Counted from the stretch's first letter, positions 10,874-64,000 are shown. The stretch: DNA of 64,000 bases from Gemmatimonadales bacterium (GCA_035251445.1 DATFEG010000156.1:3528-67527); one strand, 5' to 3'. Numbers and translations: made by a program. The notes: generated by a model from the sequence alone, not told the origin.

Positions 10874-10904
10874 CCCACGCACGACGCACCACGCACCACG
10901 CACG
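10874..10904 (+). repeat. Heptanucleotide tandem array (CCACGCA-type, about 4 units)
   Basis: The sequence cccacgc acgacgc accacgc accacgc acg fills most of the 48-nt spacer between the adaptor and the ABC ATPase. The same unit forms the ftsW/murG hairpin arms. Confidence 0.9.
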
Positions 10905-10920
10905 TTATCCCAGGACTCTC

Positions 10921-11625
10921 ATGGCCTTAGTCGAAATCCGCGACGTCCACAAATCATTCCAGCGCGAAGAACAGCGCATCGATGTCTTCACCGGGCTGAC
11001 GCTCGATATCGAGGCCGGCAGCTTCACCGCGTTGATGGGCCCGTCGGGCTCCGGCAAGTCGACGCTCCTCAACCTCATTGCTGGCCTCGACAAACCGACG
11101 CGCGGCACCGTGCGCGTGAACGGCGCCCAGGTCAGTGCGATGACGCCCGGACAACTGGCAGCCTGGCGGGCGCGTAACATCGGGTTCGTGTTCCAGTCCT
11201 TCAACCTCTTACCGGTGCTCACGGCGTATCAAAACATCGAGTTGCCGCTCCTGCTTACCAACCTCTCGGGTAAGGATCGCGACGAGCGTGTGAAGATCGC
11301 GCTCGACGTGGTCGGTCTTGCCGACCGCGCCGAACACTACCCACGCCAGCTCTCGGGCGGCCAGGAGCAACGGACCGCGATCGCGCGCGCCATCGTCGCC
11401 GATCCGACGGTGATGCTGCTCGACGAACCGACGGGGCAGCTCGACGCCAAGAGCTCACAGGAAGTGCTGGCGCTGCTGCAGCGGCTCAACAACGAGTTCA
11501 ACAAGACGATCATCATCGTCACCCACGATGCGCATGCGGCGGAGCGCGCCAAAACGACGCTGCACCTCGAGAAGGGCGATTTGATCGAGAAGCCACGCGC
11601 GCCCGCCGCCGCGGCGGCGCGGTGA
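10921..11625 (+). CDS. ABC transporter ATP-binding protein (MacB/LolD-like)
   Basis: It has Walker [10 protein letters not shown], the signature LSGGQEQR and Walker B MLLDEPT. Confidence 0.93.
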
Positions 11626-12764
11626 AGTATCTCAGGCTGGTTCTGGCCAACCTCGGCCGCCACAAGCTGCGGACGATTCTCACGATCCTGAGCGTCGCGC
11701 TGGCGTTGTTTCTGTTCGCCTCGCTCCGCAGCGTGACGACGACCCTCGCCGCGACGGCGCAGTTCGGAGGCGCGCGCCGGCTGGTCACCCTCAATGCGAC
11801 CGGCCTCGTGTTTCCGCTGCCACTCGCGTACGCGAACCGGATCAGGACGCTCAAAGGCGTGACGGGCCTGAGCTGGGCGAATTGGTTCGGCGGGAGATAC
11901 GGCGATGGCAAAGCCTTCTTTGCGAATTTCGCGGTAGATCCCGAGTCGTACCTCTCGATCTATCCCGAGATCATCCTCCCGGCCGATCAGAAGCAGGCGT
12001 TCATCCAGGACCGGACCGGGGCGATCATCGGCCAGCGGCTCATCGGCCGGTATGGCTGGAAGCTGGGGCAGAACGTGACGCTGCAGGGAACGATCTTCCC
12101 GGGCGACTGGACGTTCACGATCCGGGGCGTGTACACCCCCACCGATCCGGCCATCGGGGACGACGTGCTGATTTTTCATCACGCGTACTTCGATGAGCGC
12201 ATCGGCCGCGCCGGCATCGCGGGGTGGTACATCGTGGAAATCGATGATGCGGCGAACGCGGCGTTGATCGCCAAGTCGATCGACGACGTGTTCCGCAACT
12301 CCAGCTCGCCCACCAAGACGGGGACCGAGCGCGAATTCCAGGCGAGTTTCGCGACGATGTGGGGCAACGTCAGCTTTCTGATGAGCACGATCGGCCTCGC
12401 GGTCGTGTTCGCGATTCTGCTCGTCACGGCCAATGCGATGATGATGAGCGCTCGCGAGCGGACCGGTGAGATTGCGGTGCTGAAGACGGTCGGCTTTTCA
12501 GATCGCCTGTTGTTCGGGCTGGTCATGGTGGAGGCGGGAGCCATGGCGCTGACCGGTGCGGCACTCGGGCTTGGTGCGGCGTATCTGTTTTATCCGGCGA
12601 TCAACTTCAACGGCGCCGGCTTCCTCCCGGGATTCAAGGTCGCGACGAGCACGCTGATCGTCGGCGCCCTGGTCGCGCTCGGCCTGATGCTGGTGAGCGG
12701 CATCGTCCCGGCACTGCGGGCCGCGCGGCTACCGGTCGTCCAGGCGCTGCGGCACGTCGAATGA
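11622..12764 (+). CDS. ABC transporter permease, FtsX/MacB-type
   Basis: The 380-aa ORF has an N-terminal TM, a large periplasmic domain and three C-terminal TMs (FtsX-like topology). Its start overlaps the ATPase stop as GTGA. Confidence 0.85.
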   Translation: MKYLRLVLANLGRHKLRTILTILSVALALFLFASLRSVTTTLAATAQFGGARRLVTLNATGLVFPLPLAYANRIRTLKGVTGLSWANWFGGRYGDGKAFFANFAVDPESYLSIYPEIILPADQKQAFIQDRTGAIIGQRLIGRYGWKLGQNVTLQGTIFPGDWTFTIRGVYTPTDPAIGDDVLIFHHAYFDERIGRAGIAGWYIVEIDDAANAALIAKSIDDVFRNSSSPTKTGTEREFQASFATMWGNVSFLMSTIGLAVVFAILLVTANAMMMSARERTGEIAVLKTVGFSDRLLFGLVMVEAGAMALTGAALGLGAAYLFYPAINFNGAGFLPGFKVATSTLIVGALVALGLMLVSGIVPALRAARLPVVQALRHVE

Positions 12765-13921: not shown

Positions 13922-13939
13922 CCCTGTTCCTGTCCCCAA

Positions 13940-13971
13940 CTCCCAGCTCCCAGCTCCTAGCTCCTGGCTCC
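13940..13971 (+). repeat. Heptanucleotide tandem array (CTCCCAG-type, about 4.5 units) abutting the folP start
   Basis: The sequence ctcccag ctcccag ctcctag ctcctgg ctcc ends at the base before the ATG at 13972. It is the reverse complement of the array at 14171-14202. Confidence 0.9.
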
Positions 13972-15156
13972 ATGAAGATCACCGCGCTCGCCGCGCACAC
14001 ACCGGAAGCGGTGCGCGCGGCGCTCGCGGGACGCGGCTGGGAGACGCAACCCGCCTGGTTTGCCGCCACCGGCATCCAGCCGCTTGTCATCCTCATCGAA
14101 GCAATCACCGAAGACGAGCGCGAAGCCCTCGTGCACTGGGGCACGAAGTCCGGCGCCGACGTGCTGACTGGGGGCTCGGAGTCAGGAGCCGGGAGCTGGG
14201 CCCTCGTGGCGGGTTCCGCCAGCCGCATTGCGCCACTCGCCCGTTACGATCGCACCCCGGTCGAATTGGCGCGTCTCGCCCCGGAGCTCGGCAAGGTACT
14301 CGCGGCGCGTGCGGAGCCGCCGCGCGCGTGGGCGATCAAGGGCGCCGAGTTGTCACTCGAAAACCCCGTGATCATTGGCATCATCAATGTCACGCCCGAT
14401 TCATTTTCCGATGGTGGTCATCTGGGCTCTGTGGAAGCCGCGATCGAACACGGCGCGGGGCTCAAGGCGGCCGGCGCACGTGTTTTAGATGTGGGCGGCG
14501 AGTCCACTCGGCCCGGGGCTGCACCTCTCCCTGTCCATGAAGAAATCAGCCGCGTTGTCCCGGTGATCGCAGGGCTTGTGAAGCGAGGCCACGGCCCGAT
14601 CTCGGTCGACACACGGAAAGCTGAGGTGGCGCGGGCTGCTCTCGACGCCGGAGCCGTAGTCGTGAACGACGTGTCGGCGCTGCAGTTCGACCGTGAGCTC
14701 GCCCAAGTCGTGCAGGAAACGGAGGCGGGCATCATCCTGATGCACATGCGCGGCACCCCGGCGACGATGGACGACCTGGCCAAGTATGACCATGTGGCGG
14801 CTGAGGTCGCCGGCGAGCTCGGCGACATGGCCGCCAAGGCCGAGCGCGCGGGTATCGCGCGCGAGCGGATCGTGCTGGACCCAGGTTTTGGTTTCGCCAA
14901 AACCGCCACCCAGAACCTTCGGCTGCTCGACGAACTGGCAACGATCGTGGCCGTTGGCTATCCTGTAGCGGTCGGCCCGTCGCGGAAGCGCTTTCTGGGG
15001 GCGGCGACCGGTCGGCCCGTGGAAGATCGCGATCGCGCCACGGCTGTTGCCTGCGCCTTTGCCTGGGAGCGAGGCGCCCGGTTGTTCCGGGTCCACGACG
15101 TCGCTCTGACAGTCGAAGCCCTTTCACTAGCGAGCGCTACGACCAAGCCAACGTGA
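13972..15156 (+). CDS. folP: Dihydropteroate synthase with ~125-aa N-terminal extension
   Basis: The DHPS core starts near aa 130 (IIGIINVTPDSFSDGG) and runs to the C-terminus. Residues 1 to ~125 are an additional region of unknown function in the same ORF. Confidence 0.85.
   Translation: MKITALAAHTPEAVRAALAGRGWETQPAWFAATGIQPLVILIEAITEDEREALVHWGTKSGADVLTGGSESGAGSWALVAGSASRIAPLARYDRTPVELARLAPELGKVLAARAEPPRAWAIKGAELSLENPVIIGIINVTPDSFSDGGHLGSVEAAIEHGAGLKAAGARVLDVGGESTRPGAAPLPVHEEISRVVPVIAGLVKRGHGPISVDTRKAEVARAALDAGAVVVNDVSALQFDRELAQVVQETEAGIILMHMRGTPATMDDLAKYDHVAAEVAGELGDMAAKAERAGIARERIVLDPGFGFAKTATQNLRLLDELATIVAVGYPVAVGPSRKRFLGAATGRPVEDRDRATAVACAFAWERGARLFRVHDVALTVEALSLASATTKPT
14171..14202 (+). 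repeat. Heptanucleotide tandem array (GGAGCNG-type) inside folP
   Basis: The sequence is ggggctc ggagtca ggagccg ggagctg ggcc. It is the inverted partner of 13940-13971 and shares the exact 16-mer gctcggagtcaggagc with the array in yggS. Confidence 0.88.
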
Positions 15157-18249: not shown

Positions 18250-18942
18250 ATGAGTTTCGAGGCCCTCCCGGAGCGTTTGGCCCAGGTGAGGGCCGAAGTT
18301 GCGCGGCTCGCCTCACATCCAGTGACGATCGTCGCAGTGACGAAAGGTTTCGGCAGCGAGGCGATTCGTGCGGCTGTCGCTGCTGGTGTGGGGGACATCG
18401 GAGAGAATCGCGTTCAGGAGGCGCTGGAAAAGCAGCAGGAGTTAGGAGCTCGGAGTCAGGAGCTGGGGATTCGTTGGCATCTGATCGGGCATCTTCAGCG
18501 CAACAAGGCGAAGCATGTGCCCGGTCGCTTCGAGCTCGTGCACTCGGTCGATTCGCTGGCACTCGCCACCGAGCTCGACAGGCGCGCTTCTGGATTGCGC
18601 GTGCTGCTGCAGGTGAACGTGGCCGGCGAGGAGCAGAAGAGCGGGTGCGCGCCGCTGGAGGCGACAGCCCTCGCGCGACACATCGCCGCACTGAGGAATC
18701 TGCGGCTCGAGGGATTGATGACGGTGGCTCCATTCACTGATGATGTGGACGTGCAGCGCCGGGTGTTTCGTGGCCTGCGCGTGCTGCGTGATACGATCAA
18801 GGAGGAGAACGGAGTATGGCTGCCGACCCTCTCGATGGGGATGTCCGGCGATTACGCTACGGCGCTCGCGGAGGGAGCGACGGTGATTCGCCTGGGTACC
18901 GCACTATTCGGCCCGAGGATAGTGAAGGAGACAGGCCCGTGA
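18250..18942 (+). CDS. yggS: YggS-family PLP-binding (PLP homeostasis) protein
   Basis: The 230-aa ORF has VTKGF, GENRVQE, WHLIGHLQRNK and SMGMSGDY motifs, colinear with E. coli YggS as I recall it. Confidence 0.88.
   Translation: MSFEALPERLAQVRAEVARLASHPVTIVAVTKGFGSEAIRAAVAAGVGDIGENRVQEALEKQQELGARSQELGIRWHLIGHLQRNKAKHVPGRFELVHSVDSLALATELDRRASGLRVLLQVNVAGEEQKSGCAPLEATALARHIAALRNLRLEGLMTVAPFTDDVDVQRRVFRGLRVLRDTIKEENGVWLPTLSMGMSGDYATALAEGATVIRLGTALFGPRIVKETGP
18437..18469 (+). repeat. Heptanucleotide tandem array (AGGAGCT-type) inside yggS
   Basis: The sequence aggagtt aggagct cggagtc aggagct gggga encodes QELGARSQELGI. Confidence 0.88.
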
Positions 18943-26233: not shown

Positions 26234-28141
26234 ATGGACCTGTCGCAGTACGCCGAGCTGTTCCTGGCTGAGAGTCGGGAGCACTTGAGCGCCTGCAATC
26301 AGCTGCTGCTCGAGTGGGAACGCCGGCCATCGTCTCCCGAGCCGGTGAGCGGGATCTTCCGCGCGGTGCACACGATGAAAGGGATGGCGGCGACCATGGG
26401 ATATGGTCGCGTTGCCGACCTCGCGCATCGCATGGAGAATCTGCTGGACCAGCTAAGGCGCGGCGGCAAGCCACCGACTGATGCTACTCTGGAACTGCTC
26501 TTCCGTGCGACCGACGCGTTGGAGAAAGCGGTCGCTCTGGCGGTGGCCGGCCGCGAGCGCGAGCTCGACATCGCGTCGCTCGTCGCAGAATTTGACCACG
26601 CTGTCTCGGCCGGCGCTTCACCCGCCGCCGCTTCATCTACCGTCGCCTCATCTACCGTCGCCTCACCTCCCGTCGCCTCATCTCCCGTCGCCTCATCTCC
26701 CGTCGCCTCACCCGCTCGCCTCATTCACGTAGCCATCCGCCCTGAAACGCCGTTAAAAGGCGGCCGCGCCATGCTCGTGCTTCGTAAGGCGCAGACCCTG
26801 GGGACGGTGCAGCGGGTTCAGCCGCCCCCCACAGCGTTCGAGTCGGACGATTTCGATGGGAATGTGGCGTTCGAGCTGCACAGCTCCGCTGCGTCCCCTG
26901 AGATCGAGGCGGCGCTGCATGCGGTCGGCGACGTGGAGCGCGTCTCGATCGGCGGTAGTGAGGGCCGAGTCGATGACGCCGCGGGCGGGCGCAGCCGGCA
27001 CATCCGCGTCGACTTACGTCGCCTGGATACGCTGATGGACCTGATCGGGGAGCTCGTGACCGAGCGCGGCCGTCTGAACGAGGTGGCGGGCCGCTTGGCT
27101 GGTCAGGATCAGGCGATCGACGATATCGCGGTCCAGATCTCGCGCCTGTCCGCCGATCTCCAGAACGAGATCATTCAGGCACGCATGACGCCGGTGTGGC
27201 AGATCTTCGACCGTTTTCCGCGGCTCGTGCGCGACGTCGCGCGCCAGCTGGACAAAGACGTCGCGTTGCGCGTGGAAGGAAAGGAGATCGAGCTTGATCG
27301 GGCCATTCTCGACGAGCTCGGTGACCCGTTGGTGCACCTGCTGCGGAATGCCGTCGATCATGGAATCGAGCCACCCGCTGAACGCAAGCGGCACAAGAAG
27401 AACCCCGAAGGCCAGATCGTGCTCGCCGCGGTCCGTGAGCGCAACAGCGTCGCGATCAGCATCTCCGATGACGGCCGCGGTATCGATCGAGCGAGCATTC
27501 TCCAAAAAGCGAAGCGCGAGGGGATCGTGTCACCGCATGTCGAGTCGCTGTCCGACGATCAGCTCCTGCGCGTGCTCGCCCGGCCGGGCTTCACGACGGC
27601 CGGCACGGTCACGGCGGTGTCGGGCCGGGGCGTGGGAATCGATGTCGTCATGACGCGGCTCCGCACGCTCGGGGGATCGATCGAGATCCGGACGGAAACA
27701 GGGAAAGGCACGACGTTCATGCTGCGGCTTCCCGTCACGCTCGCCATCGTGCGCGCGCTGATCGCGGCCGTCGGGCACGAGCGGTACGCGCTGCCCCTGA
27801 CGTACGTCGCCGAAACGGTGGAGTTCGGTACGACCGCGCGGACGACGATGGAAGGGCGGGATGCGATCGTTCTGCGGGACCGCGTGGTGCCCCTCGTGGA
27901 TCTCCGCACGCTGCTGGGAACAAACGGCGGCGCTCCCGCGCCCCCTCCGCGGCGCCCCGTTATCGTGCTCGAAATGGGTGAGCGCCGCGCGGGTATCGTC
28001 GTCGACGGAATGCTCAGCCAGCAGGAGATTGTGGTGAAGGGATTCGACGCACCGCAGGGCACGTTGCCGATATTCAGCGGCGCCACGATCCTGGGGGATG
28101 GCGTGCCGACGTTGATATTGGATGCGGCGGGGCTGGTGTGA
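26234..28141 (+). CDS. cheA: Chemotaxis histidine kinase CheA
   Basis: It has an Hpt domain (FRAVHTMKGMAATMG), a dimerisation region, an HATPase domain (N, G1, G2 boxes) and a C-terminal CheW-like domain. A repetitive Ala/Ser/Pro linker follows P1. Confidence 0.95.
   Translation: MDLSQYAELFLAESREHLSACNQLLLEWERRPSSPEPVSGIFRAVHTMKGMAATMGYGRVADLAHRMENLLDQLRRGGKPPTDATLELLFRATDALEKAVALAVAGRERELDIASLVAEFDHAVSAGASPAAASSTVASSTVASPPVASSPVASSPVASPARLIHVAIRPETPLKGGRAMLVLRKAQTLGTVQRVQPPPTAFESDDFDGNVAFELHSSAASPEIEAALHAVGDVERVSIGGSEGRVDDAAGGRSRHIRVDLRRLDTLMDLIGELVTERGRLNEVAGRLAGQDQAIDDIAVQISRLSADLQNEIIQARMTPVWQIFDRFPRLVRDVARQLDKDVALRVEGKEIELDRAILDELGDPLVHLLRNAVDHGIEPPAERKRHKKNPEGQIVLAAVRERNSVAISISDDGRGIDRASILQKAKREGIVSPHVESLSDDQLLRVLARPGFTTAGTVTAVSGRGVGIDVVMTRLRTLGGSIEIRTETGKGTTFMLRLPVTLAIVRALIAAVGHERYALPLTYVAETVEFGTTARTTMEGRDAIVLRDRVVPLVDLRTLLGTNGGAPAPPPRRPVIVLEMGERRAGIVVDGMLSQQEIVVKGFDAPQGTLPIFSGATILGDGVPTLILDAAGLV
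26633..26720 (+). repeat. 15-nt in-frame tandem repeat (about 5.8 copies) in the CheA P1 linker
   Basis: The unit tcatctaccgtcgcc and its variants encode SSTVA SSTVA SPPVA SSPVA SSPVA SP. Confidence 0.92.
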
Positions 28142-34370: not shown

Positions 34371-34973
34371 GTGTCCCTGGTCAACTTCACGAGCCGCGAG
34401 ATCACCTGCAAAATCGTCTACTACGGACCGGGCCGGTCCGGGAAGACGACCAATCTCCATTACATCTACGAGCGCGTACCGGAGACCCGTCGCGGCCGCA
34501 TGGTGTCGCTCGCCACGCAGACCGACCGCACGCTGTTCTTCGATTTCCTGCCGATCGACCTAGGTCAGATCTCCGGCTTTTCCACGCGCTTTCAGCTCTA
34601 CACCGTGCCGGGGCAGGTTTACTACAACGCCACTCGGCGACTCGTCCTGCAGGGCGCCGACGGTGTGGTGTTCGTTGGCGACAGCCAGGCGCGCCAGCTC
34701 GACGAGAATATCGAGAGCCTCCAAAACCTCCACAGCAACCTGCTGGAACACGGCGTCGACGTGCGCACGATGCCGCTGGTGATGCAATACAACAAACAGG
34801 ACCTGCCACGCGAGCTGATTCTCACGCCCGCCGAGCTGGACGACTCGCTGAACTTTCGCTCGGTGCCGTCCTTTTCGGCCGACGCGCTCCACGGCAAGGG
34901 AGTATTCGAGACACTGAAGAGCATCTCGGAGCTCGTGCTGAAGAAGCTGGCTGCGGGGAGCCCGGCGGCATGA
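34371..34973 (+). CDS. mglA: MglA-family Ras-like small GTPase
   Basis: The 200-aa ORF has REITCKIVYYGPGRSGKTTNLHYIY (P-loop), DRTLFFDFLP, YTVPGQVYY (switch 2) and QYNKQDL (NKxD). It is near-colinear with M. xanthus MglA. Confidence 0.92.
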   Translation: MSLVNFTSREITCKIVYYGPGRSGKTTNLHYIYERVPETRRGRMVSLATQTDRTLFFDFLPIDLGQISGFSTRFQLYTVPGQVYYNATRRLVLQGADGVVFVGDSQARQLDENIESLQNLHSNLLEHGVDVRTMPLVMQYNKQDLPRELILTPAELDDSLNFRSVPSFSADALHGKGVFETLKSISELVLKKLAAGSPAA

Positions 34974-36937
34974 CCACCACGCTCAACCCCCGCTTCACGT
35001 TCGACACCTTCGTGGTGGGCGCGGCCAACCGCCTGGCGGTCACTGCCGGCCGGACGGTGGCCGAGAATCCCGGCTTCGCCTACAACCCGCTCTTCATCTA
35101 TAGTGGGTCTGGTCTCGGAAAGACGCATGTCATGATGGGGATCGGCCACGCGGCCAAGTCGCTCGCGCCGCAGCTGAACATCGAATACCTGACGTTGGAC
35201 GAATACGTCGAGGCATTTCACGCCGCCATCGCCGCGGGGCAGGGCGACGCCTTCCGGCGGCGCTTCCAAAACGTGGGCGTGCTGCTCGTCGACGACGTGC
35301 AATTCCTCACGAACCGCAAAGAGATGCAGGCCGAGCTGCTACGCCTGACCGAAGCGCTGCAGCAGGCCGGCCATCAGATTGTGTTGGCCAGCGACCGGCC
35401 GCCCGCCGAAATCGCTGACCTCGACGAACGGCTGATTTCCCGGTTCTCCGGCGGTCTGGTTGTCGACATCGGGGTCCCGGACTATGAGACGCGCGTCGCG
35501 ATTTTGCGGCGCAAAGCGGAGGGGCGGGGGATCGCGTTCCAGCCGGGTGTGCTCGAGACGATTGCGAAAATCGAGTTCCCGAATGTGCGCGAGCTGATGG
35601 GTGCGCTGAACCGGGTTGTGGCCTTCCAGGCCGTGCACGACTCGCCCGTCAACGAAGAAGCGGTGCGCAAGGTGCTCGGCGTCCCGGCCGCTGCCTCATT
35701 GGCCGCTGCCTCATCGGCCGCTGCCTCATCGGCCGCCGCCTCTCCGGCCGTCGCCTCACCCGACGAGTTCTCGCAGTTTCTCACTGACGTCACCGCCAAT
35801 GTGGGAAAGGCCGTCGAGGCCTGGCGCGCGCGCGTGGCCGAAGCGGTGATGCGTTGGCAGGGGGAAGGCTATCGTACCGGACGTCTCGAGCAGCTCCTGG
35901 ATCGAAACAAGCCGGCGGCGGTGGACGACGAGATCGACGCCTACGTACGGGATGTGGAGCGGCTCAAGGCGCTCGAGGCGGAAGTCGCGACGCTGGATCC
36001 GCGGGTCGCGGGTGACAAAGTCTTCCACGATCCGGACCGCATGGACGAAGCCGAAGCGGCCGCCGCCCGGGTGCGCGAGGGCGCGGCGCCGCCGCCTGCC
36101 CCGTCGGGTGCGTTTCCGCTCGAAAGTTTTCGCGCGGGCCCGTCCAACGAGGTCGCGCTCAGCGCGGCGCGCGATGTCATTGCGAAACCGGGCAAGAAGT
36201 ACAATCCGCTCGTCATCGTCGGCAACAGCGGGCTGGGGAAGACGCACCTCCTGAACGCAATCGGCCTGGAGCTGTCGAAGAAAAGAGGCGCGATCGTGGC
36301 GTGTCTGTCCACGCAGGCGTTTGTGGACGAGCTGATCGCGGCGATCGACGGCAACCGCGTGGATTGGTGGCGCGCACGCTATCGGCGGTGCACGGCGCTC
36401 GTGCTCGATGACATCCAGCTTCTCGCCGGCAAGCAGCGCACGCAGGAAGAGCTGTTCAATCTCTTCAACCAGTTCCTCGACGCCGAGCGCCAACTTGTGT
36501 TCTCCGCGCCCGCGCATCCCAAGACCCTGGAAGGGCTGGAGGAGCGCATTGTGTCCCGGCTCGAGGGCGGGCTCGTCGCGGAGCTGGGTGAGCCCGACAA
36601 GGACGTGCGCCGCAGCGCGCTGGAGGGCCTGCTCCGGCAGCAACGCGTGATGACGGATTCCGCGTTGCTGGATTATCTCGCCGACCGCCCGGTGGATTCT
36701 GTCCGCAGCCTGACGGCACTCGTGCAGCGGGTCCTCGAGGCGGCGGCCGCGCAAGACGCGCCGGTCACGGCGGCTCTCGCGCGGGACGTGCTCGAAGGCT
36801 CAGTTGCGGCGCGCCGCTCGCTCGGTGCCCGGACCAGCGGCCTCGTGGTCTCGAGCGCGGGCGGCGTGCGCAGCCGCGAAAAGATGGTGTGGGATTGGCC
36901 GACGGCCGCCGACCGCGTCATTGAGGACATCCGCTGA
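34970..36937 (+). CDS. Tandem DnaA-like AAA+ ATPase (two Bac_DnaA-type modules, no DNA-binding domain IV)
   Basis: The ATG at 34970 overlaps the mglA stop as ATGA. Module 1 has NPRFTFDTFVVGAANRLA, Walker A GSGLGKTH, Walker B LLVDDVQFL, LASDRPP, SRFSGGLVVDI and NVRELMGALNRV. Module 2 has ESFRAGPSNEVA, GNSGLGKTH, LVLDDIQLL, SAPAHP, SRLEGGLVAEL and SVRSLTALVQRV. A repeat linker and a coiled-coil-like segment separate them. The protein ends without a DnaA_C helix-turn-helix. Confidence 0.8.
   Translation: MTTTLNPRFTFDTFVVGAANRLAVTAGRTVAENPGFAYNPLFIYSGSGLGKTHVMMGIGHAAKSLAPQLNIEYLTLDEYVEAFHAAIAAGQGDAFRRRFQNVGVLLVDDVQFLTNRKEMQAELLRLTEALQQAGHQIVLASDRPPAEIADLDERLISRFSGGLVVDIGVPDYETRVAILRRKAEGRGIAFQPGVLETIAKIEFPNVRELMGALNRVVAFQAVHDSPVNEEAVRKVLGVPAAASLAAASSAAASSAAASPAVASPDEFSQFLTDVTANVGKAVEAWRARVAEAVMRWQGEGYRTGRLEQLLDRNKPAAVDDEIDAYVRDVERLKALEAEVATLDPRVAGDKVFHDPDRMDEAEAAAARVREGAAPPPAPSGAFPLESFRAGPSNEVALSAARDVIAKPGKKYNPLVIVGNSGLGKTHLLNAIGLELSKKRGAIVACLSTQAFVDELIAAIDGNRVDWWRARYRRCTALVLDDIQLLAGKQRTQEELFNLFNQFLDAERQLVFSAPAHPKTLEGLEERIVSRLEGGLVAELGEPDKDVRRSALEGLLRQQRVMTDSALLDYLADRPVDSVRSLTALVQRVLEAAAAQDAPVTAALARDVLEGSVAARRSLGARTSGLVVSSAGGVRSREKMVWDWPTAADRVIEDIR
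35686..35760 (+). repeat. 15-nt in-frame tandem repeat (5 copies) in the linker of the DnaA-like protein
   Basis: The unit ggccgctgcctcatc and its variants encode AAASL AAASS AAASS AAASP AVASP. Its 3-prime end cgtcgcctcaccc is identical to the end of the CheA repeat. Confidence 0.92.
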
Positions 36938-43618: not shown

Positions 43619-43840
43619 GTGCCCTATATGCCTGAGCACGGGTTCGCGCGTTCTCGTCTGCGCTTTGGACCGAGGAACTATGTGGTCTTGGGCGCAGCAA
43701 TAGTGTCACTTGCACTTGGTTACTGGCGGTTGTCGCAGGGATCAACGACGCTCGCGCCGGTGCTGCTCGTACTGGGCTACTGCGTTTTGTTTCCGGTAGG
43801 CTTGGCCCTCCGCTTGCCCGAAAATGGCACGGGCGAATAG
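43619..43840 (+). CDS. Possible small two-TM membrane protein
   Basis: The 73-aa ORF has two hydrophobic segments. Its stop lies inside the 5-prime end of tRNA-Val, and a TTGACG-17-TAGACT promoter-like pair sits just upstream at 43588-43616. Support is weak. Confidence 0.3.
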   Translation: MPYMPEHGFARSRLRFGPRNYVVLGAAIVSLALGYWRLSQGSTTLAPVLLVLGYCVLFPVGLALRLPENGTGE

Positions 43841-43904
43841 CTCAGCGGTTCAGAGCGCCTGCCTTACACGCAGGATGTCGGGGGTTCGAATCCCTCTTCG
43901 CCCA
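43831..43904 (+). tRNA. tRNA-Val (anticodon UAC)
   Basis: I folded a 74-nt cloverleaf by hand. The acceptor is GGGCGAA/TTCGCCC, the anticodon arm is CCTGC-CTTACAC-GCAGG, and the T arm is GGGGG-TTCGAAT-CCCTC. Confidence 0.9.
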
Positions 43905-45795: not shown

Positions 45796-45869
45796 GGGGC
45801 TGTAGCTCAGCTGGTTAGAGTGCCGGTCTGTCACACCGGAGGTCGCGGGTTCGAGCCCCGTCAGCCCCG
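45796..45869 (+). tRNA. tRNA-Asp (anticodon GUC)
   Basis: I folded a 74-nt cloverleaf by hand. The acceptor is GGGGCTG/CAGCCCC, the anticodon arm is CCGGT-CTGTCAC-ACCGG, the T arm is GCGGG-TTCGAGC-CCCGT, and the discriminator is G. Confidence 0.9.
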
Positions 45870-45896
45870 CTCAGCGTCGGACGATCATCCATGAAG

Positions 45897-45924
45897 CCCC
45901 CGCCCCTTACGGCGGGGGTTTTCT
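45897..45924 (+). terminator. Rho-independent terminator after tRNA-Asp
   Basis: An 8-bp all-GC stem (ccccgcc.. / ..ggcgggg; 45897-45904 pairs with 45911-45918) with a 6-nt loop is followed by ttttctt. Confidence 0.7.
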
Positions 45925-45959
45925 TATGTTTGAGAGTGCCATTGGTGGCTGAACGCGTG

Positions 45960-46883
45960 ATGCCTTTTCATGTCCCGGTCCTGGCGGAGGCGGTCCGCAG
46001 GTGGGCAGCCGCCAGTCGCCGTGCCGTGGACGGCACGCTGGGCGGCGGTGGACACGCCGCCATTCTGCGCGATGTAGGCGCGCGTGTTCTCGGCATCGAT
46101 CGCGATCCCGCCGCTCTCGCCACCGCGCGCGCGCACCTCGGCACCGCGGGAATCGAATACCTCGAAGGCTCGTTTGGCGACCCTGCCGTCCTTACTGCCA
46201 TTCAGTCATTCACCCCCGATCGCATTCTGCTCGACCTCGGTGTCAGCTCACATCAGATCGATTCCGCTGAGCGCGGCTTCACGTTCCGTCCGGGCGCGCC
46301 GCTCGATATGCGGATGGAGGGAGCAGGGAGCAGCGAGCGGGGAGCAGTGACGGCGCGGGACATACTGAACTCCTGGCCTGTCGAACGCCTCGCGACTGTT
46401 TTCCAGGACTACGCCGACGAGCGGCGGGGACGCGCCCTCGCTAAGGAGATCGTGCGGCGCCGTCTGACTGCCCCGTTTGCCGTCAGTGACGACGTCGTCA
46501 ATGCGATCCGAGCCGTGCTGGGCCCGCGGTCCGGCCCGTCCGATTTCGCGCGTCTGTTTCAGGCGCTTCGGATCGCCGTCAACGACGAGCTCGATGTGCT
46601 CGCGACCGCGCTGCCGGCGCTGCGGGATGCCCTCGATCCTGGCGGGCGGATCGGGGTAATCACCTACCACTCGGGCGAGGATCGCATCGTCAAGCACGCG
46701 TTCCGCGAGTGGGCGCGCGACTGCATCTGTCCGCCGCGGCAGCCCGTCTGCACGTGCCGGGGCCATGCGCTCGGACGCGTGCTCACCCGAAAGCCTATCG
46801 TTCCCGACGCGAACGAGATCGCCACCAATCCGCGCGCTCGCTCGGCGCAGTTTCGCGTCTTTGAGGTCGGGAATGGCCGTTAG
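45960..46883 (+). CDS. rsmH: 16S rRNA (cytosine1402-N4)-methyltransferase RsmH (MraW)
   Basis: It has HVPVL, DGTLGGGGH, DLGVSSHQ and YHSGEDR motifs. I chose the ATG at 45960 because the track start at 45891 would read through the tRNA terminator. Confidence 0.92.
   Translation: MPFHVPVLAEAVRRWAAASRRAVDGTLGGGGHAAILRDVGARVLGIDRDPAALATARAHLGTAGIEYLEGSFGDPAVLTAIQSFTPDRILLDLGVSSHQIDSAERGFTFRPGAPLDMRMEGAGSSERGAVTARDILNSWPVERLATVFQDYADERRGRALAKEIVRRRLTAPFAVSDDVVNAIRAVLGPRSGPSDFARLFQALRIAVNDELDVLATALPALRDALDPGGRIGVITYHSGEDRIVKHAFREWARDCICPPRQPVCTCRGHALGRVLTRKPIVPDANEIATNPRARSAQFRVFEVGNGR
46319..46346 (+). repeat. Heptanucleotide tandem array (GGGAGCA x4) inside rsmH
   Basis: The sequence gggagca gggagca gcgagcg gggagca encodes GAGSSERGA, just after the conserved DMRM motif. 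Confidence 0.88.
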
Positions 46884-50606: not shown

Positions 50607-51979
50607 TGGCGGCTGGGGGGGTGGGCCTCGCGATCGGGCGATCCTGGACGAGCGATGAGGTGGCGGCGGCGTTGGGTGTACGCTCGCCTGCGAAACTCAC
50701 GTTCAAAGCGATCGCAACCGATACCCGATACCCGATACCCGATAGCCTGTTTGTCGCTCTCAAGGGCGAGAACTTCGACGCGCACAACTTCCTCGAGAAA
50801 GCAAAGGAGCAGGGAGCAACGGCTGCCATCGTGCGCCGCGGCACGGCTCCCATCGCCGGTCTGCCGTTCTTCGAGGTCAATGACACGCTCGAGGCGCTCG
50901 GATTACTGGCGCGCGCGCGGCGGCGGCTCTTTCCCGAGGGCACACCGGTTGTTGCGATCACGGGCTCGAGCGGCAAGACCAGCACCAAGGAGATGATCCG
51001 GGCCGCCCTCGGCGCTCGGTACCGTGTCCACGCGACATCCAGGAATCTCAACAATCGCGTGGGCGTGCCGCTCACGATTCTCAGCGCGCCCGATGATACG
51101 GAGGCGCTCGTCGTGGAAGCTGGGGCCAGCGTCCCGGGAGAGATCGCGAAGCTGCGGGACATCATCGAGCCGACGATCGCGGTCATCACCAACATCGGCT
51201 ACGCGCACGTCGAGGGTTTCGGCTCGCTGGAAGGCGTAATGGCCGAAAAGCTGTCGCTGCTCGACCGCGCGCCCGTCGCGATCCTTGGGTCGGGTCCAGA
51301 TCTGATGTGGCCCGAGGCGCGGCGCCGGACGCGGGTCATTCCGGCGGCGCTTCCGGGCAAGAGCGGGGACGACCGCTTGCTCGACCGCTACCTCGATGCA
51401 GACGGCCACCCCCGCCTGACGCTCCACTCGGGGGAGCAGGTCACGCTGCCGGCCCTGGGGATTCACCAGCTCGAGAATGCACAGATCGCGCTGGCCGTGG
51501 CGCAGCGCGCCGGGGTCGAGCACGACGCCGCGGCGCGCGCCCTGGCCGGGCTCCAGCTGCCGGAAGGGCGAGGGGACGTGCGGGAGATCGGCAGCCTGCT
51601 TGTGATAGACGACAGCTACAACGCCAACCCGGCCTCCATGCGGCGGGCGGTGCAGACGGCCGCCTGGCTGGCGGGGCGGCAGCGGCGGCCGCTCGTGGTG
51701 GTGGTGGGCACGATGTTGGAGTTAGGGCCGGAAAGTGCAAGATTGCACGCCGAAGCCGCGCGCGAAATTGCCCGGCGCAAGCCGGCACTCGTCGCTGCCG
51801 TCGGGACGTTCGCGCGCGCGTTCGAACCCCTGCGCGAAGAGTTGGGAGGACGCCTGATCACCGCAGCCGATGCCAACGCCCTTGGCCCGAAACTCAAATC
51901 GGCGCTGCGCGGCAACGAGCTTCTATTGCTCAAGGCGTCCCGGGGCGTGGCACTCGAACAGGTGCTGCGGCACATCTAA
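50606..51979 (+). CDS. murF: UDP-N-acetylmuramoyl-tripeptide--D-alanyl-D-alanine ligase
   Basis: It has TDTR...LFVALKGENFDAH and ITGSSGKTSTKEM. Confidence 0.92.
   Translation: MAAGGVGLAIGRSWTSDEVAAALGVRSPAKLTFKAIATDTRYPIPDSLFVALKGENFDAHNFLEKAKEQGATAAIVRRGTAPIAGLPFFEVNDTLEALGLLARARRRLFPEGTPVVAITGSSGKTSTKEMIRAALGARYRVHATSRNLNNRVGVPLTILSAPDDTEALVVEAGASVPGEIAKLRDIIEPTIAVITNIGYAHVEGFGSLEGVMAEKLSLLDRAPVAILGSGPDLMWPEARRRTRVIPAALPGKSGDDRLLDRYLDADGHPRLTLHSGEQVTLPALGIHQLENAQIALAVAQRAGVEHDAAARALAGLQLPEGRGDVREIGSLLVIDDSYNANPASMRRAVQTAAWLAGRQRRPLVVVVGTMLELGPESARLHAEAAREIARRKPALVAAVGTFARAFEPLREELGGRLITAADANALGPKLKSALRGNELLLLKASRGVALEQVLRHI
50719..50747 (+). repeat. Heptanucleotide tandem array (CGATACC x4) inside murF
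   Basis: The sequence cgatacc cgatacc cgatacc cgatagc c encodes TDTRYPIPDS and overlays the conserved TDTR motif. Confidence 0.92.
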
Positions 51980-54473: not shown

Positions 54474-55573
54474 TGACCTGGGAGGGACGACTGCTCGCGG
54501 TCGTGACCGCGGTGCTGGTCGTCTTTGGTCTCGGGGCGGTGTACGGCGCCTCGAGTCTCGTCAACGTCGCGGGAGGACAGGTCGGCGCGAGCTTCGCCTT
54601 GCGCCAGGCCGTCGGTGCCGTCGTCGGCGGACTGCTCGCGATTGTGTGTGCGCGCCTGGATTACCATCGCTGGCGGCGCTGGGCCTGGCCGTTCCTTGGC
54701 GTCACGGTCTTCCTGCTGTTGATCCCGTTGCTGCCGTTCACGCACGCGATCACGCCCACGATCAATGGTGCGCGCCGCTGGGTGAACCTCGGTGTGCTGA
54801 CGCTGCAGCCCTCCGAGCTCGCCAAGTTCGCCGTCGTCGTGTGGTGCGCGATGCTCGCGGCCAAGAAAGGCGAGCAACTGCGCGACTTCAAACAGGGCGT
54901 ACTCCCATTCCTCGTGATTCTCGTCCCGGTCATCGGTCTGATCTTCCTCGAGCCGCATCTTTCAATGGCGCTCCTCGTCGCCATCCTGGCCGGGAGCGTG
55001 CTGTTTACCGCCGGCGCGCGCATCGGCCACTTCCTTGCGCTGGGCGCGGCCGCGGGACCGCTCCTGTTCGGCGCCATCGCGTCGGCGCAGTACCGGATGG
55101 CGCGGGTTCTCACTTTTCTGAATCCGGGCGCCACGCCCCAAGAAGCGTCCTGGCAAGTGCATCAATCGCTCACCGGCATCGGAGCGGGACAGGTGCTCGG
55201 TGTGGGATTCGGTCAAGGGCAGCAAAAGCTGGGGTATCTGCCATACGCGTATTCTGACTTCATCTTCTCAACGATCGGGGAGGAATGGGGCTTTGTCGGG
55301 GTCCTCGCGATCGCGCTGCTCTTCGGGACGTTCCTGTGGCTCGGCTTCCGCATCGCCCGGAACGCTTCCGATCCCTTCGGCCAGCTGCTGGCGACGGGGA
55401 TCACCGTGATGATCGGCTTGAGCGTGGTCCTGCACGTCGGCGTCAGCCTCGCGGTGATTCCGGCGACGGGTGTGACGCTGCCGTTCATGTCGTATGGACG
55501 CTCCTCTCTGATCGTTGCGCTAGCAGCAACCGGTGTGCTTGCGAGCGTCGGACGTGCACGACGAACTGCATAG
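54473..55573 (+). CDS. ftsW: SEDS-family peptidoglycan polymerase FtsW
   Basis: The 366-aa polytopic protein has PSELAKF and PYAYSDFIFSTIGEEWG motifs and sits in the expected dcw position. Confidence 0.93.
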   Translation: MTWEGRLLAVVTAVLVVFGLGAVYGASSLVNVAGGQVGASFALRQAVGAVVGGLLAIVCARLDYHRWRRWAWPFLGVTVFLLLIPLLPFTHAITPTINGARRWVNLGVLTLQPSELAKFAVVVWCAMLAAKKGEQLRDFKQGVLPFLVILVPVIGLIFLEPHLSMALLVAILAGSVLFTAGARIGHFLALGAAAGPLLFGAIASAQYRMARVLTFLNPGATPQEASWQVHQSLTGIGAGQVLGVGFGQGQQKLGYLPYAYSDFIFSTIGEEWGFVGVLAIALLFGTFLWLGFRIARNASDPFGQLLATGITVMIGLSVVLHVGVSLAVIPATGVTLPFMSYGRSSLIVALAATGVLASVGRARRTA

Positions 55574-55651
55574 TGCGTGGTGCGTGGTGCGTGGGCTCGA
55601 GGTGGGATCCGTAAACCCACGCACCACGCACCACGTACCACGCACTTTTTT
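55573..55651 (+). terminator. Heptamer-array hairpin with T6 tail (terminator-like) between ftsW and murG
   Basis: The left arm is (GTGCGTG)x3 plus GG at 55573-55595. The right arm is CC(CACGCAC)-type x4 at 55616-55645. The potential stem is about 23 bp with a 20-nt loop, followed by tttttt at 55646-55651. Confidence 0.6.
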
Positions 55652-55654
55652 CAC

Positions 55655-62651: not shown

Positions 62652-62675
62652 CCTTTCAGTCCACACTACATACTC

Positions 62676-63362
62676 GTGGAGCTCTATCCCGCCGTCGACA
62701 TAGAAGGCGGGCGCGTGGCACGCGCTCACGGGCGGGCGGCCGACCCGGTGGTTGCGCTCGACGAGTTCACGCGGGCCGGCACGCGCTGGATCCATCTCGT
62801 GGACATGGATCGCGCCTACGGGCGGACCGACAACCACGCCTTGATCGGCGCCGTGCTCAATGCGGCGACGGTGCGCGTTCAAGTCGGCGGCGGCCTGTTT
62901 CGCGAAATCGACATAGACCAGATGTTCACGCTGGGCGCCACGCGCGTCGTGATCGGGCCGCGCGGCGCCATCGACGCCGCCCTCGTCGAGCGACTGCTTG
63001 CGCGGCACGGCGCGAACCGGCTCGCCGTGGGCATCGACGCGAAAAACGGTCACGTTGCGCCACGCGGAACGAAAGAGATTCTCGACATGAGTGTGCGGGA
63101 GTTGGCGACGCGCGTGACCGGAGCCGGCATCCGGACGATCATCTATAACGAAGTGACCCGGGATGGGGCGCTCACCGGTCCCGACATCGAGGGCGCGACC
63201 GGGCTGCTCCCGCTCGGCGCCGATGTGATTGTTTCGGGGGGCGTCGGCTCGCTGGAAGACTTGCGCGCGGCGCGAGCCGCGGGGCTCGCGGGGGCGTGCG
63301 TCGGGCGCGCGCTCTATGACGGGCGGTTCACTATCGCGGAGGCCCTCGCGTGTCTCTCATGA
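62676..63362 (+). CDS. HisA/PriA-like (beta/alpha)8 isomerase family protein
   Basis: It has the N-terminal YPAVDIEGGRV, VGGGL and SGGVGSLEDL phosphate-binding motifs typical of HisA. It is isolated from any his operon in this window. Confidence 0.72.
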   Translation: MELYPAVDIEGGRVARAHGRAADPVVALDEFTRAGTRWIHLVDMDRAYGRTDNHALIGAVLNAATVRVQVGGGLFREIDIDQMFTLGATRVVIGPRGAIDAALVERLLARHGANRLAVGIDAKNGHVAPRGTKEILDMSVRELATRVTGAGIRTIIYNEVTRDGALTGPDIEGATGLLPLGADVIVSGGVGSLEDLRAARAAGLAGACVGRALYDGRFTIAEALACLS

Positions 63363-64000
63363 TTTTGAGAGGACTGGCCATGCTCGGGCTGATCCTGCTG
63401 CTGTGGAATCCCGCCAGCTCCCGCATCCTGCCGACCAGCGATCAGCCGATCGTGCTGCTCGATGCCTCGCTCAGCATGAGCGCTTCCTGGCGGGCTGCGC
63501 TGGACAGCGTACGGCCAATGATGGGTCGGCGCGCGGTGGTGTGGCGGTTCGGCCGCACGGTGGCCGGGTTCGATTCGGTGCCGCCGGGCGACGGCGCGAC
63601 GCGCCTCGCACCGGCGTTGGAGGCTGCCGCGGGCCGCGCCGGCGAGGTGGTCGTTGTGTCAGACGGTGCTGTGGAGGATGCGGCGTCGATCCCGCCGGAT
63701 CTGTTGCGCCGCCCCCGTGTCGTCCTGCTGCCGCGCGCTCCCTTTTTCGATGCCTTCATCGCGTCAGTCGAGGGCACGAAACATGTGACCCGCTCCGACA
63801 CCGTACGCTTGAAGGTGAGCTACGGAACTGCCGGGAGGCGGGAAACGGGGAACGGGAAACGAGGGACGCTGGCGGTCCGGATCGGTGAGCGCGACCTGGC
63901 GTCGCAGCGAGTGCCGCTTCCAGACAGTGGGACGATTACAACCGAGCTCACGTTTCCCGTTTCCCGTATCCCGTCTCCCGGTTGGTCTGTACTCGAGATT
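63359..64000 (+). CDS. Membrane-anchored vWA-like protein, 3-prime partial (runs off the window)
   Basis: This frame is open from the ATG at 63359 (ATGA overlap with the HisA-like stop) to the window end, and it is not in the supplied track. It has an N-terminal TM (LAMLGLILLLW) and a MIDAS-like DxSxS (LLDASLSMS). The track ORF 63229-63888 is in another frame and looks spurious. Confidence 0.5.
   Translation, partial: MILRGLAMLGLILLLWNPASSRILPTSDQPIVLLDASLSMSASWRAALDSVRPMMGRRAVVWRFGRTVAGFDSVPPGDGATRLAPALEAAAGRAGEVVVVSDGAVEDAASIPPDLLRRPRVVLLPRAPFFDAFIASVEGTKHVTRSDTVRLKVSYGTAGRRETGNGKRGTLAVRIGERDLASQRVPLPDSGTITTELTFPVSRIPSPGWSVLEI
63833..63868 (+). repeat. Heptanucleotide tandem array (GGGAAAC-type, about 5 units) inside the partial CDS
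   Basis: The sequence is gggaggc gggaaac ggggaac gggaaac gagggac g. It is the inverted partner of 63951-63981. Confidence 0.88.
63951..63981 (+). repeat. Heptanucleotide tandem array (CGTTTCC-type, about 4.5 units) inside the partial CDS
   Basis: The sequence cgtttcc cgtttcc cgtatcc cgtctcc cgg is the reverse complement of the 63833-63868 array. Confidence 0.88.

Follow-up and report, generated by a model that had tools for sequence, protein, structure and literature searches.

Heptamers have been known as the commonest class of long simple-sequence repeats (SSRs) in many bacteria since a survey in 2007 (PMC4692102; PMC4679880). The window analysed here, a whole stretch of 64,000 nt from a Gemmatimonadales MAG, represents a clade that is particularly instructive in this respect, with tandem 7-nt units not only in spacers but also inside conserved housekeeping genes. 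The host is called a soil Gemmatimonadales bacterium, and its genome is very compact. Every array in such a genome adjoins or sits in a conserved gene, and thus orthologous sites can be aligned across dozens of metagenomic relatives.

Heptanucleotide arrays in the window

The first-pass annotation described ten heptamer arrays dispersed through spacers and conserved genes. Tandem Repeats Finder (TRF) calls nine of them with period 7 (10875–10903, 13935–13971, 18436–18464, 46318–46347, 50718–50744, 55573–55594, 55617–55645, 63839–63861 and 63951–63980), and TRF together with our own scan gives 3.1–4.6 head-to-tail copies at the ten sites. In our scan of the window, six period-7 arrays reach a score of at least 12, against 0.01 expected from 100 dinucleotide shuffles, and none of the other periods from 4 to 13 yields an array at this score. 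With a codon-preserving null, seven arrays reach a score of at least 10, whereas 200 shuffles average 0.12 and never exceed 2. No non-codon period other than 7 is enriched, and the dispersed arrays are real and far above chance by TRF and by both nulls. Among 43 distinct arrays, 23 are intergenic and about half lie in genes, housekeeping genes included; by crude gene calls, spacers make up just a few percent of the genomes concerned, so the arrays are enriched in non-coding DNA. As tandem 7-nt copies over-represented relative to both chance and other unit lengths, they behave as long SSRs. Regarding the host genes, Pfam supports the ABC ATPase, FolP, YggS-type and RsmH assignments and PDB homology supports MurF, while the last, partial gene has no Pfam match and its earlier label, vWA-like, is unconfirmed.

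All features below are given on the + strand. A single array of four CCACGCA units (10874–10904; TRF) fills the 48-nt spacer between the stop codon of an HlyD-type gene (10872) and the ATG of the ABC ATPase (10921), and is unstructured as RNA (fold z +0.9). Five CTCCCAG units (arm B, 13935–13971; TRF) lie between the stop codon of an FtsX-type permease gene (13921) and the folP ATG (13972), which they adjoin; in most relatives this junction is instead a stop/start overlap (GTGA). Arm C (14171–14202), in folP codons 67–77, consists of degenerate GGGAGCW units that read GGGGGCT CGGAGTC AGGAGCC GGGAGCT, too degenerate for TRF. It is nevertheless real, as seen from the protein alignment, the DNA and its covariation with arm B: clearer arrays occupy the same codons in relatives, and it is complementary to 13935–13971. 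Arm C is an 18-nt (6-aa) loop insertion, VLTG[GSESGA]GSWALV, in the protein alignment of 50+ relatives. The GGAGYYN array of the yggS-type gene (18437–18469; TRF periods 7 and 14) encodes QELGARSQELG in a loop of 4, 7 or 10 aa (alignment and DNA, 31 relatives), and yggS arrays terminate in the resident sequence GGGATTCG. The exact 16-mer GCTCGGAGTCAGGAGC, noticed earlier as common to the folP and yggS arrays, occurs at 14174 and 18448 and nowhere else; the sharing of so irregular a sequence suggests conversion between arrays. Other units also recur, CCACGCA in two spacers of the window and CCGATAC in murF and in a spacer of L118.

Four AGGGAGC units in rsmH (46318–46347; TRF) encode the EGAGSSERGA loop after the DMRM motif. 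Compared with the Thermus thermophilus homologue (PDB 1wg8), this array adds 6 aa, and the site carries GGGGAGR in L003 and GGGAAGG in L004, while L002 has a shorter loop and no array. The murF array (50718–50747), 3.9 perfect copies of CCGATAC (TRF, 100% matches), encodes TDTRYPIPDS and is length-neutral: there is no indel relative to L003, L011 or Escherichia coli MurF, to which it aligns gap-free at TDTRKLTPGC. The MurF TDTR codons, ACC GAT ACC CGA, are a proto-repeat that has been extended downstream without an indel. These two genes show that the arrays are lineage-specific and not conserved protein motifs. In the ftsW–murG gap, three GTGCGTG units (55573–55594) begin at the final base of the ftsW stop codon and form the left arm of a hairpin; the right arm, four CCACGCA units (55617–55645), is followed by TTTTTT and, about 10 nt on, by the probable GTG start of murG (55656). 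The last partial gene contains GGGAAAC-type units (arm 1, 63833–63868), encoding GRRETGNGKRG, and GTTTCCC-type units (arm 2, 63951–63981), encoding TFPVSRIPSPG.

Clade specificity, unit turnover and stability

The density of arrays per 100 kb is 9.4 in the window, 7.8 in L002–L004 and 7.0 in relatives with at least 76% FolP identity; it falls to 1.5 at 61–75% identity and to 0 at 50% or less. In 1.45 Mb from other phyla it is 0.07, so that the window is about 100-fold denser. The arrays are lineage-specific, and their density tracks phylogeny. Less than 1 Mb of related sequence holds at least 15 unit types, and no single unit dominates.

The orthologous sites show that arrays stay in place while their units change. 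The ftsW–murG hairpin, which has orthologues in L002–L004, is built from GTGCGTG, GTGCGGC, GTGYGGC or TGCGGAT depending on the lineage. The HlyD–ABC spacer carries CCACGCA, ATCAATG, CCGATAS or GATAGCC, while in other relatives it is a 28-nt perfect palindrome or only 8 nt with an AGGAG Shine–Dalgarno sequence, the last being the ancestral state. The rsmH, yggS and folP loops likewise carry different units at the same site. Differing 7-nt units in arrays at an orthologous position represent concerted evolution. The first-pass picture of one dispersed family with four unit classes holds only in part, since the unit differs between relatives at orthologous sites and the coding arrays are seeded from resident sequence. 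For example, at site D, in a FolP helix of relatives, a CACGGCG or GAYGGCT array arises from CGGCTCGTGGCCGACGGGTGC without an indel. Net insertions within genes are +9 or +18 nt, which are not multiples of 7 or 21. The coding arrays are of two kinds, small in-frame loop insertions (rsmH, yggS and folP) and length-neutral rewrites of conserved stretches (MurF TDTR and, in relatives, the FolP helix). In intergenic arrays the unit number also differs among relatives, as in the ATCAATG hairpin with 2–5 units per arm.

Between close strains, the arrays are stable. Two ENA assemblies, ERZ27257131 and ERZ27257135, share 99.9% identity with the window; the former has an unchanged murF array, and both have an unchanged ftsW–murG hairpin. 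Counted over three independent assemblies of this identity, the murF array is the same in one (L001) and the hairpin in two (L170 and L171), and at these two sites the consensus shows no ±7 variation. Therefore, the arrays are not artefacts and are not hypermutable on that time scale. A non-triplet repeat in a reading frame, in which a change of one unit could switch the gene off, resembles a phase-variable contingency SSR, and the frameshift hazard pointed out earlier is real in principle. However, we see no unit-number change in any coding array, and every reliable homologue preserves the reading frame, with anchor distances of 105 or 108 nt. The frameshifts in the homologue contigs L162 and L165 are of sizes other than 7 nt, also occur at non-array sites and look like assembly errors. 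A contingency locus, which sits in a variable and usually surface gene, is rejected given the housekeeping hosts (murF, folP and rsmH), the conserved frame and identical arrays in near-identical strains.

Inverted pairs and the origin of the arrays

The three inverted-repeat pairs reported earlier all fold into long stems of 25–33 bp, far more stable than shuffles: the 55573/55617 pair has −59.4 kcal/mol (z −7.6), the 63833/63951 pair forms 31 bp (z −6.3) and the folP B:C pair (13940/14171) forms about 33 bp closing 200 nt (z −3.8). For the remaining four of the ten arrays, no inverted counterpart lies within 700 nt. In the last-gene hairpin, 90.8% of cells are paired and 10 pairs are changed on both sides (0 of 500 shuffles; slid controls 36–65%), covariation that spans six lineages. 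The folP B:C stem shows periodic CG→UA compensations. Arms and complementarity are kept across lineages of only 57–73% protein identity, and many lineages have only arm B or only arm C of folP. In four species the ftsW–murG hairpin fits its gap exactly, beginning at the ftsW stop and ending about 10 nt short of the murG start, and no Shine–Dalgarno motif is visible there in those species. Wherever a single array precedes a start codon, its sense strand is poor in G and unstructured. The antisense strand folds as well as the sense, and this lack of strand asymmetry is in line with a process acting on DNA. An Rfam search of the window returns only three tRNAs at gathering score, and no family matches the arrays. 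A conserved intrinsic terminator at ftsW–murG is rejected, since the window has T6 but L002–L004 lack a U-tract, and a simple terminator scan does not call the hairpin.

The reading that we favour, at a probability of roughly 55%, is that the arrays are clade-specific long SSRs driven by slippage or template switching and filtered by selection. During DNA synthesis, slipped-strand misalignment or template switching would lengthen a short proto-repeat of the resident sequence while keeping a 7-nt register. At length-tolerant sites (intercistronic spacers and surface loops) such copying would yield insertions; at length-fixed sites (the MurF TDTR region and the FolP helix), neighbouring bases would be overwritten, either through misalignment and subsequent realignment or through short-patch conversion. 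The same copying would homogenize the units within an array, and template switching within an intrastrand hairpin would homogenize the two inverted arms, so that lineages may come to differ in their units and yet retain the arrays and the complementarity of the arms. We infer that selection then lets arrays survive in three settings only: G-poor unstructured leaders directly ahead of start codons, perfect hairpins exactly filling intercistronic gaps, and in-frame Gly/Ser/Arg-rich loops. Several results count against slippage or template switching. Across 21 kb aligned four ways, isolated substitutions private to one lineage do not tend to reproduce the base 7 nt away (the ratio, 0.87, resembles those at lags 4, 5, 8 and 10), the arrays are identical in the 99.9% identical assemblies, and the in-gene insertions are of +9 and +18 nt. 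In addition, selection on structure explains at least as easily the persistence of arms at such low protein identity, a purely local origin does not predict the recurrence of CCACGCA and CCGATAC at unrelated sites, and the model gives no reason for register 7.

The arrays, and the inverted pairs above all, might instead be selected nucleic-acid structures in polycistronic mRNA, a reading that we consider possible on a minority view. The hairpins may then affect operon mRNA as RNase III-type processing or stability sites, or may bring stop and start codons together for translational coupling; single G-poor arrays would be unstructured leaders, a bias shared with Xanthomonas, and tandem repetition would be the route by which stems are built and kept. 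The stability of the stems relative to shuffles, the strong compensatory covariation at conserved sites, the exact fit of the ftsW–murG hairpin with no visible Shine–Dalgarno motif and the stability of arrays between near-identical strains all agree with this. However, such selection would not account for folds without strand asymmetry, four partnerless arrays, lineages with one folP arm alone, an ftsW–murG U-tract that is not conserved or the lack of an Rfam match, and in two of the hairpins at least one arm is coding, so that translating ribosomes would open the stem. The proposal made for the GGGNATC arrays of Xanthomonas and Nostoc, regulatory repeats that form G-quadruplexes, is very improbable here. 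GGGAAAC, GGGAGCW, GGGAAGG and GGGGGAC do contain a GGG run, and arrays of 4–5 units (63833–63868 and rsmH of L004) satisfy four G3N4 repeats, with about four units being typical as in Xanthomonas. However, CCACGCA, CGATACC, ATCAATG, CACGGCG, TGCGGAT and GCAGATG have no G3 run on either strand, most sampled arrays lack four G3 tracts (the G-rich strand of 13935–13971 has only two GGG runs), and inverted partners would favour duplex.

We give equally little weight to the insertion, at hot spots, of REP/MITE-like or other small mobile elements, or to scars left by an element that duplicates a 7-bp target. Spacers of 31–80 nt in place of 0–8 nt in relatives, the palindrome in the HlyD–ABC spacer of other relatives, and the units and 16-mer common to separate sites would suit them, and stable hairpins in intercistronic operon spacers are a trait of REP/BIME. 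REP/BIME have a conserved family sequence and RAYT genes, whereas the stems here are built from tandem heptamers with lineage-specific units. We find no conserved element sequence, terminal inverted repeats or flanking target-site duplication at the arrays, and no transposase or RAYT is evident among the 16 of about 57 window genes scanned against Pfam. Furthermore, the units differ by site and lineage, the murF and folP site D arrays arise without length change, coding arrays are seeded from resident codons, and an insertion–excision cycle within murF would be lethal. Least probable of all is selection for repeated peptides with the DNA periodicity as a by-product. The coding arrays do encode flexible-looking, Gly/Ser/Arg-rich loops (GSESGAG, EGAGSSERG and RRETGNGKRG), but one site freely encodes differing peptides (RETGNGK, RDGGRGTGK and LRGSGLGARN) with no loss of DNA periodicity or arm complementarity. 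At the peptide level, a period of 7 aa arises from 7-nt units only once 21 nt have been read, in arrays of just 3–5 units, and about half of the distinct arrays are intergenic. We conclude that mobile elements, protein motifs and artefacts do not account for the arrays.

A bolder reading, which we put forward as unlikely, is that templated copying or conversion proceeds with register 7 in this clade, or that selected hairpins exploit such a process. It would rewrite resident DNA into arrays without length change (the conserved helix of FolP, the dihydropteroate synthase, and the segment by MurF TDTR) and keep distant inverted arms complementary over long evolutionary periods, even when both are coding. 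This would amount either to a mechanism of mutation or gene conversion not described before, or to structured elements of a new class, intragenic as well as intercistronic, that are made of tandem repeats. The alignments constrain any model through birth from resident proto-repeats, length-neutral growth and co-evolving inverted arms. If the driver is mutational, it acts on DNA with enough force to alter the amino acids of essential enzymes; if it is selective, long repeat-built hairpins in operons and genes are an uncharacterized regulatory device. The question 'why seven?' becomes testable in this clade.

Comparison with known heptamer repeats

The arrays are a clade-specific counterpart of the cyanobacterial STRR and the Xanthomonas GGGAATC repeats, with some unusual evolutionary behaviour. 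Like the STRR of Calothrix and Nostoc, they are dispersed, mainly intergenic heptanucleotide arrays with several unit classes per genome. STRR belong to another phylum and occur in low-GC genomes as longer arrays than those here; we know of no in-frame STRR arrays in essential genes. The characteristic STRR units of heterocystous cyanobacteria are CCCCAGT, TTGGTCA and CAACAGT. Membership is rejected, as the host is a Gemmatimonadales bacterium and CCACGCA, CTCCCAG, CCGATAC, GGGAAAC and the other units differ from these.

The first-pass annotation knew of no GC-rich, partly coding equivalent, but one had been published. Xanthomonas has about 185 GGGAATC arrays, typically of four units and mostly between co-oriented ORFs, of which 70–75 are in inverted pairs and 7–11% are intragenic (Rehm et al. 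2015, PMC4692102). With these, in a genome of about 65% GC, and with the GGGGA(C/T)T repeats of Nostoc, the arrays share tandem 7-nt units in about four copies, strong over-representation against other unit lengths, a concentration in short spacers that separate co-oriented genes, with the C-rich strand in the transcript just upstream of the ORF, many convergent inverted pairs able to form stem-loops, and the same intergenic sites in related species with varying length and sequence. Only a minority of the Xanthomonas and Nostoc repeats is intragenic, in contrast to about half here, and the many units here are mostly unable to form G-quadruplexes. No array contains GGGAATC or GGGGAYT (the nearest is GGGATTC, in L164 and L090) and most units lack G3 runs, so the arrays do not belong to the GGGNATC family. 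Arm covariation and length-neutral growth, documented here, are apparently not described for these repeats in the accounts consulted.

According to Mrazek, Guo and Shah (2007), as cited in PMC4679880 and PMC4692102, heptamers prevail among long SSRs especially in large GC-rich genomes of non-pathogens, and slippage of a polymerase whose footprint covers about 7 nt was put forward as the source. That work is a statistical survey, which treats neither orthologous-site unit turnover nor hairpin covariation nor length-neutral growth and, as far as could be found, includes no Gemmatimonadota. Finally, the TAACTGA direct repeats of marine Beggiatoaceae are 2–6 tandem heptamers directly upstream of start codons, for which a role in translation has been suggested, with cold-shock proteins as proposed readers that would each bind a single heptamer (MacGregor 2015, PMC4679880). 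Heptamer arrays just upstream of start codons are common to both systems; however, TAACTGA is one fixed unit across phyla and related heptamers are not repeated, whereas many units are used here and turn over.

Period-7 arrays in the window and its relatives

The window is very compact and 63–69% GC, with stop and start codons that overlap in many genes, and nearly all of its genes lie on the + strand (55 of the 57 called). All 4-kb bins from 1 to 64000 show positive GC skew, which together with the gene orientation fits a single replichore whose genes are strongly co-oriented with replication. The first-pass annotation had claimed ten arrays of tandem heptamers here, and Tandem Repeats Finder calls period 7 at nine of these sites. 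The tenth (14171–14202, units GGGGGCT CGGAGTC AGGAGCC GGGAGCT) is degenerate; we accept it as an array because the same codons hold clearer arrays in relatives and because it is complementary to 13935–13971. A simple lag-match scan finds six period-7 arrays with a score of at least 12, against 0.01 expected from dinucleotide shuffles, and none with such a score at any other period from 4 to 13. Codon shuffling within genes (200 trials) yields on average 0.12 arrays scoring at least 10 and never more than 2, against seven in the window; the period-7 excess holds under both null models that the annotation had proposed. The exact 16-mer that it reported as common to the folP and yggS arrays is also present, and the exact 14-mer CCACGCACCACGCA has no match in the other loci searched. 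Since the array calls, both shuffles and the shared 16-mer agree, the observation is correct and far beyond chance. An origin by chance or composition is ruled out by the two kinds of shuffle and by a cross-phylum control.

Two independent ENA assemblies, ERZ27257131 and ERZ27257135, are a few SNPs away from the window. The murF array is identical in ERZ27257131 (locus L001), the hairpin in the ftsW–murG spacer is identical in both (L170 and L171), and JGI and NCBI contigs hold orthologous arrays. Thus, the arrays are reproducible in independent assemblies, as had been asked of them, and an assembly artefact is ruled out. Judged from consensus sequences, they are also stable among strains that are nearly identical.

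The genomes closest to the window are three Gemmatimonadales soil MAGs (L002–L004), with a MurF identity of 84–85%. In the same scan, the density of period-7 arrays per 100 kb is 9.4 in the window, 7.8 in the three MAGs, 3.7 in 75 soil-metagenome relatives fetched via FolP and 0.07 in 77 loci that represent other phyla, where 1.45 Mb yielded a single array. Periods other than 7 are not conspicuous in any of the four sets. Among the FolP relatives, the density falls from 7.0 at 76% identity or more to 1.5 at 61–75% and to zero at 50% or less. In the close-relative tier, arrays of period 8 show a mild excess (seven in 559 kb). Alignments with relatives and PDB homologues rule out a conserved protein motif as the origin of the arrays. 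The feature is real and lineage-specific.

Regarding position, 23 of the 43 distinct arrays in the clade are intergenic, yet only a few percent of the sequence is spacer, and nearly all of these 23 lie 0–38 nt upstream of a start codon. The sense strand of single arrays upstream of starts is G-poor and unstructured; that of coding arrays is G-rich and encodes loops rich in Gly, Ser, Arg and Glu.

Arrays inside genes and unit turnover

The coding arrays follow two modes, small in-frame loop insertions and length-neutral rewriting. In the first mode, the array adds six residues to RsmH compared with the Thermus thermophilus homologue (PDB 1wg8), six residues at folP codons 67–77 compared with most relatives, and three or six residues to a loop of YggS; the net insertions are thus +9 or +18 nt and not multiples of 7. 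The array that directly precedes the folP ATG is likewise an inserted spacer, at a point where the permease stop codon overlaps the folP start in most relatives. In the second mode, the MurF segment TDTRYPIPDS of the window aligns without gaps to TDTRQLTPGT in L003 and TDTRKLTPGC in Escherichia coli. The conserved TDTR motif is encoded by ACC GAT ACC CGA, which already amounts to 1.6 repeat units, and the array runs downstream from these codons. Similarly, where distant lineages have AQAERLVADGCE as a conserved FolP helix, relatives carry, with no indel, either a run of 4.5 CACGGCG units (EHGARLTAHGAR) or a GAYGGCT array. Coding arrays thus arise from resident proto-repeats and can alter the amino acids of conserved enzymes; the peptides at one site vary freely among relatives, and the DNA periodicity is kept.

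Two of these genes show further features. FolP carries a 134-residue N-terminal extension ahead of its pterin-binding domain (13972–14373). This extension matches nothing in Pfam and shows high conservation in the clade (e.g. PEAVRAALAARGWExQPAWFAA); one of its loops holds the array at 14171–14202. Just upstream of rsmH lie a tRNA gene (45796–45869) and, after it, a terminator-like hairpin (45893–45922) that has a T-run, so the mechanical ORF start at 45891 over-extends the gene, and the start is likely at 45942. Further tRNA genes lie at 3650–3724 and 43831–43904.

In relatives, orthologous positions are occupied by arrays of other heptamers. The ftsW–murG spacer holds a heptamer-armed hairpin in all four species, built from GTGCGTG/CCACGCA in the window, GTGCGGC in L002, GTGYGGC in L003 and TGCGGAT/AATCCGC in L004, and each of the four folds far better than its shuffles. 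The loop of rsmH carries AGGGAGC in the window, GGGGAGR in L003 and GGGAAGG in L004, and L002 is without an array; that of yggS has GGAGYYN, GGGDTCG or GGGGTTR and spans 4, 7 or 10 residues. The spacer between the HlyD and ABC genes (10873–10920) is only 8 nt long in more distant relatives, with a canonical AGGAG Shine–Dalgarno motif for ribosome binding, and 31–80 nt long in the clade of the window, where it contains CCACGCA, an ATCAATG/CATTGAT hairpin, CCGATAS, GATAGCC, an octamer array (NTTCCAAC three times, in L091) or, in L096, L102, L106 and L112, the perfect 28-nt palindrome GTAGGGGCGCAGCATGCTGCGCCCCTAC. Units are uniform within a lineage and unlike between lineages, which is the signature of concerted evolution.

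Inverted pairs and hairpins

Six of the ten arrays pair up as the three inverted pairs that had been claimed, and all three form stems; the other four have no inverted partner within 700 nt. The ftsW–murG pair (55573/55617) folds at −59.4 kcal/mol (z = −7.6) into roughly 25 bp. The last-gene pair (63833/63951) forms 31 bp around an interval of about 90 nt (z = −6.3), and the folP pair (13935–13971/14171–14202) forms some 33 bp around an interval of 200 nt in which the start codon lies (z = −3.8). A conserved terminator at ftsW–murG is ruled out, as the T-run after the window hairpin is not conserved in relatives. No Rfam family matches.

We compared the last-gene hairpin in the DNA of six lineages whose proteins are only 57–73% identical. 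Four unit types (GGGAAAC, GGGGGAC, GGGACGR and GGGSYTC) build up the arms, which are complementary throughout, with 90.8% of cells paired and ten pairs changed on both sides. None of 500 shuffles matches these values, and slid controls pair at 36–65%. Among more distant homologues, one is without both arms and another has the first arm only. The folP stem also shows periodic CG→UA compensations among the window, L082 and L150, and some lineages have one folP arm of the two. In a strand comparison meant to show whether the hairpins act as RNA or as DNA, the G·U and A·C counts are 39 and 6 for the sense strand and 34 and 11 for the antisense strand, with no consistent asymmetry. Both strands fold equally well overall, and the energy favours either one, site by site, so the pairing may matter in RNA or in DNA.

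The last gene (63380–64000, continuing in protein P0001) encodes a hydrophobic segment at the N-terminus and a DxSxS-like motif, DASLS. Its earlier label, vWA-like, is unconfirmed, because it belongs to no Pfam family and its only occurrences are in metagenome sequences of Gemmatimonadales type. Arm-to-arm frameshifts in the homologues P0017 and P0043 are rejected as unit-number changes, since the shifts are of 1–2 nt and additional ones lie outside the arrays. The homologues at L162 (JGI Ga0609855_1135) and L165 (WNGI01215978.1) are frameshifted several times, by 1–2 nt and in part away from the arrays. Assembly errors or pseudogenes are the most likely reason for such frameshifts, not unit-number variation.

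Origin of the arrays and other features of the window

In many bacteria, heptamers are the commonest class of long simple sequence repeats, for which polymerase slippage has been put forward (see the summaries in PMC4692102 and PMC4679880). The GC-rich Xanthomonas genomes hold about 185 GGGAATC arrays with four units preferred, mostly between co-oriented ORFs and with the C-rich strand in the transcript when upstream of an ORF; 70–75 are in convergent inverted pairs and 7–11% are intragenic (PMC4692102). The first-pass belief that no GC-rich equivalent is known is therefore outdated. A literature search on heptamer repeats in Gemmatimonadota found nothing relevant. The feature belongs to the known bacterial heptanucleotide repeats, with unusual and well-resolved evolutionary behaviour. 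Compared with Xanthomonas and earlier reports, the many units and their turnover, the high intragenic share in housekeeping genes, the hairpins with coding arms and demonstrable covariation, and the length-neutral array growth appear to exceed what has been described.

We favour, with a probability of about 55%, a clade-specific simple-sequence-repeat process that combines slipped-strand or template-switch copying in a 7-nt register with selection. Such copying would extend resident proto-repeats and homogenise their units, intrastrand hairpin switching would keep inverted arms alike, and selection would retain only products that preserve the reading frame and operon expression. Several observations count against this process. 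Near-identical strains have stable arrays, net coding insertions depart from multiples of 7, one identical unit recurs at unrelated sites, and paired arms last over long evolutionary time. In addition, the isolated lineage-specific substitutions (4,252 derived changes, taken from a four-way alignment spanning 21 kb) show no lag-7 templating bias, in what is a weak test at about 78% identity. These five points keep alive an explanation in which the arrays are themselves selected structures, e.g. double-strand RNase sites or stop/start juxtapositions for translational coupling, which we consider less likely. Explanations by quadruplexes, mobile elements or peptide selection each fail on most arrays.

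Apart from the heptamers, the window holds two in-frame 15-nt tandem arrays (26610–26724 and 35685–35758, 5.7 and 4.9 copies), which share the core GCCTCAT and encode (V/A)ASS(P/T) pentapeptide linkers. One separates the Hpt domain from the P2 domain in a CheA-type kinase; the other separates the two halves of a protein that contains a pair of Bac_DnaA ATPase domains. This 655-residue protein (34970–36937, gene start uncertain) matches Pfam Bac_DnaA in two stretches (E = 9e-101), DnaA domain IV is not reported, and the tandem architecture is unusual.
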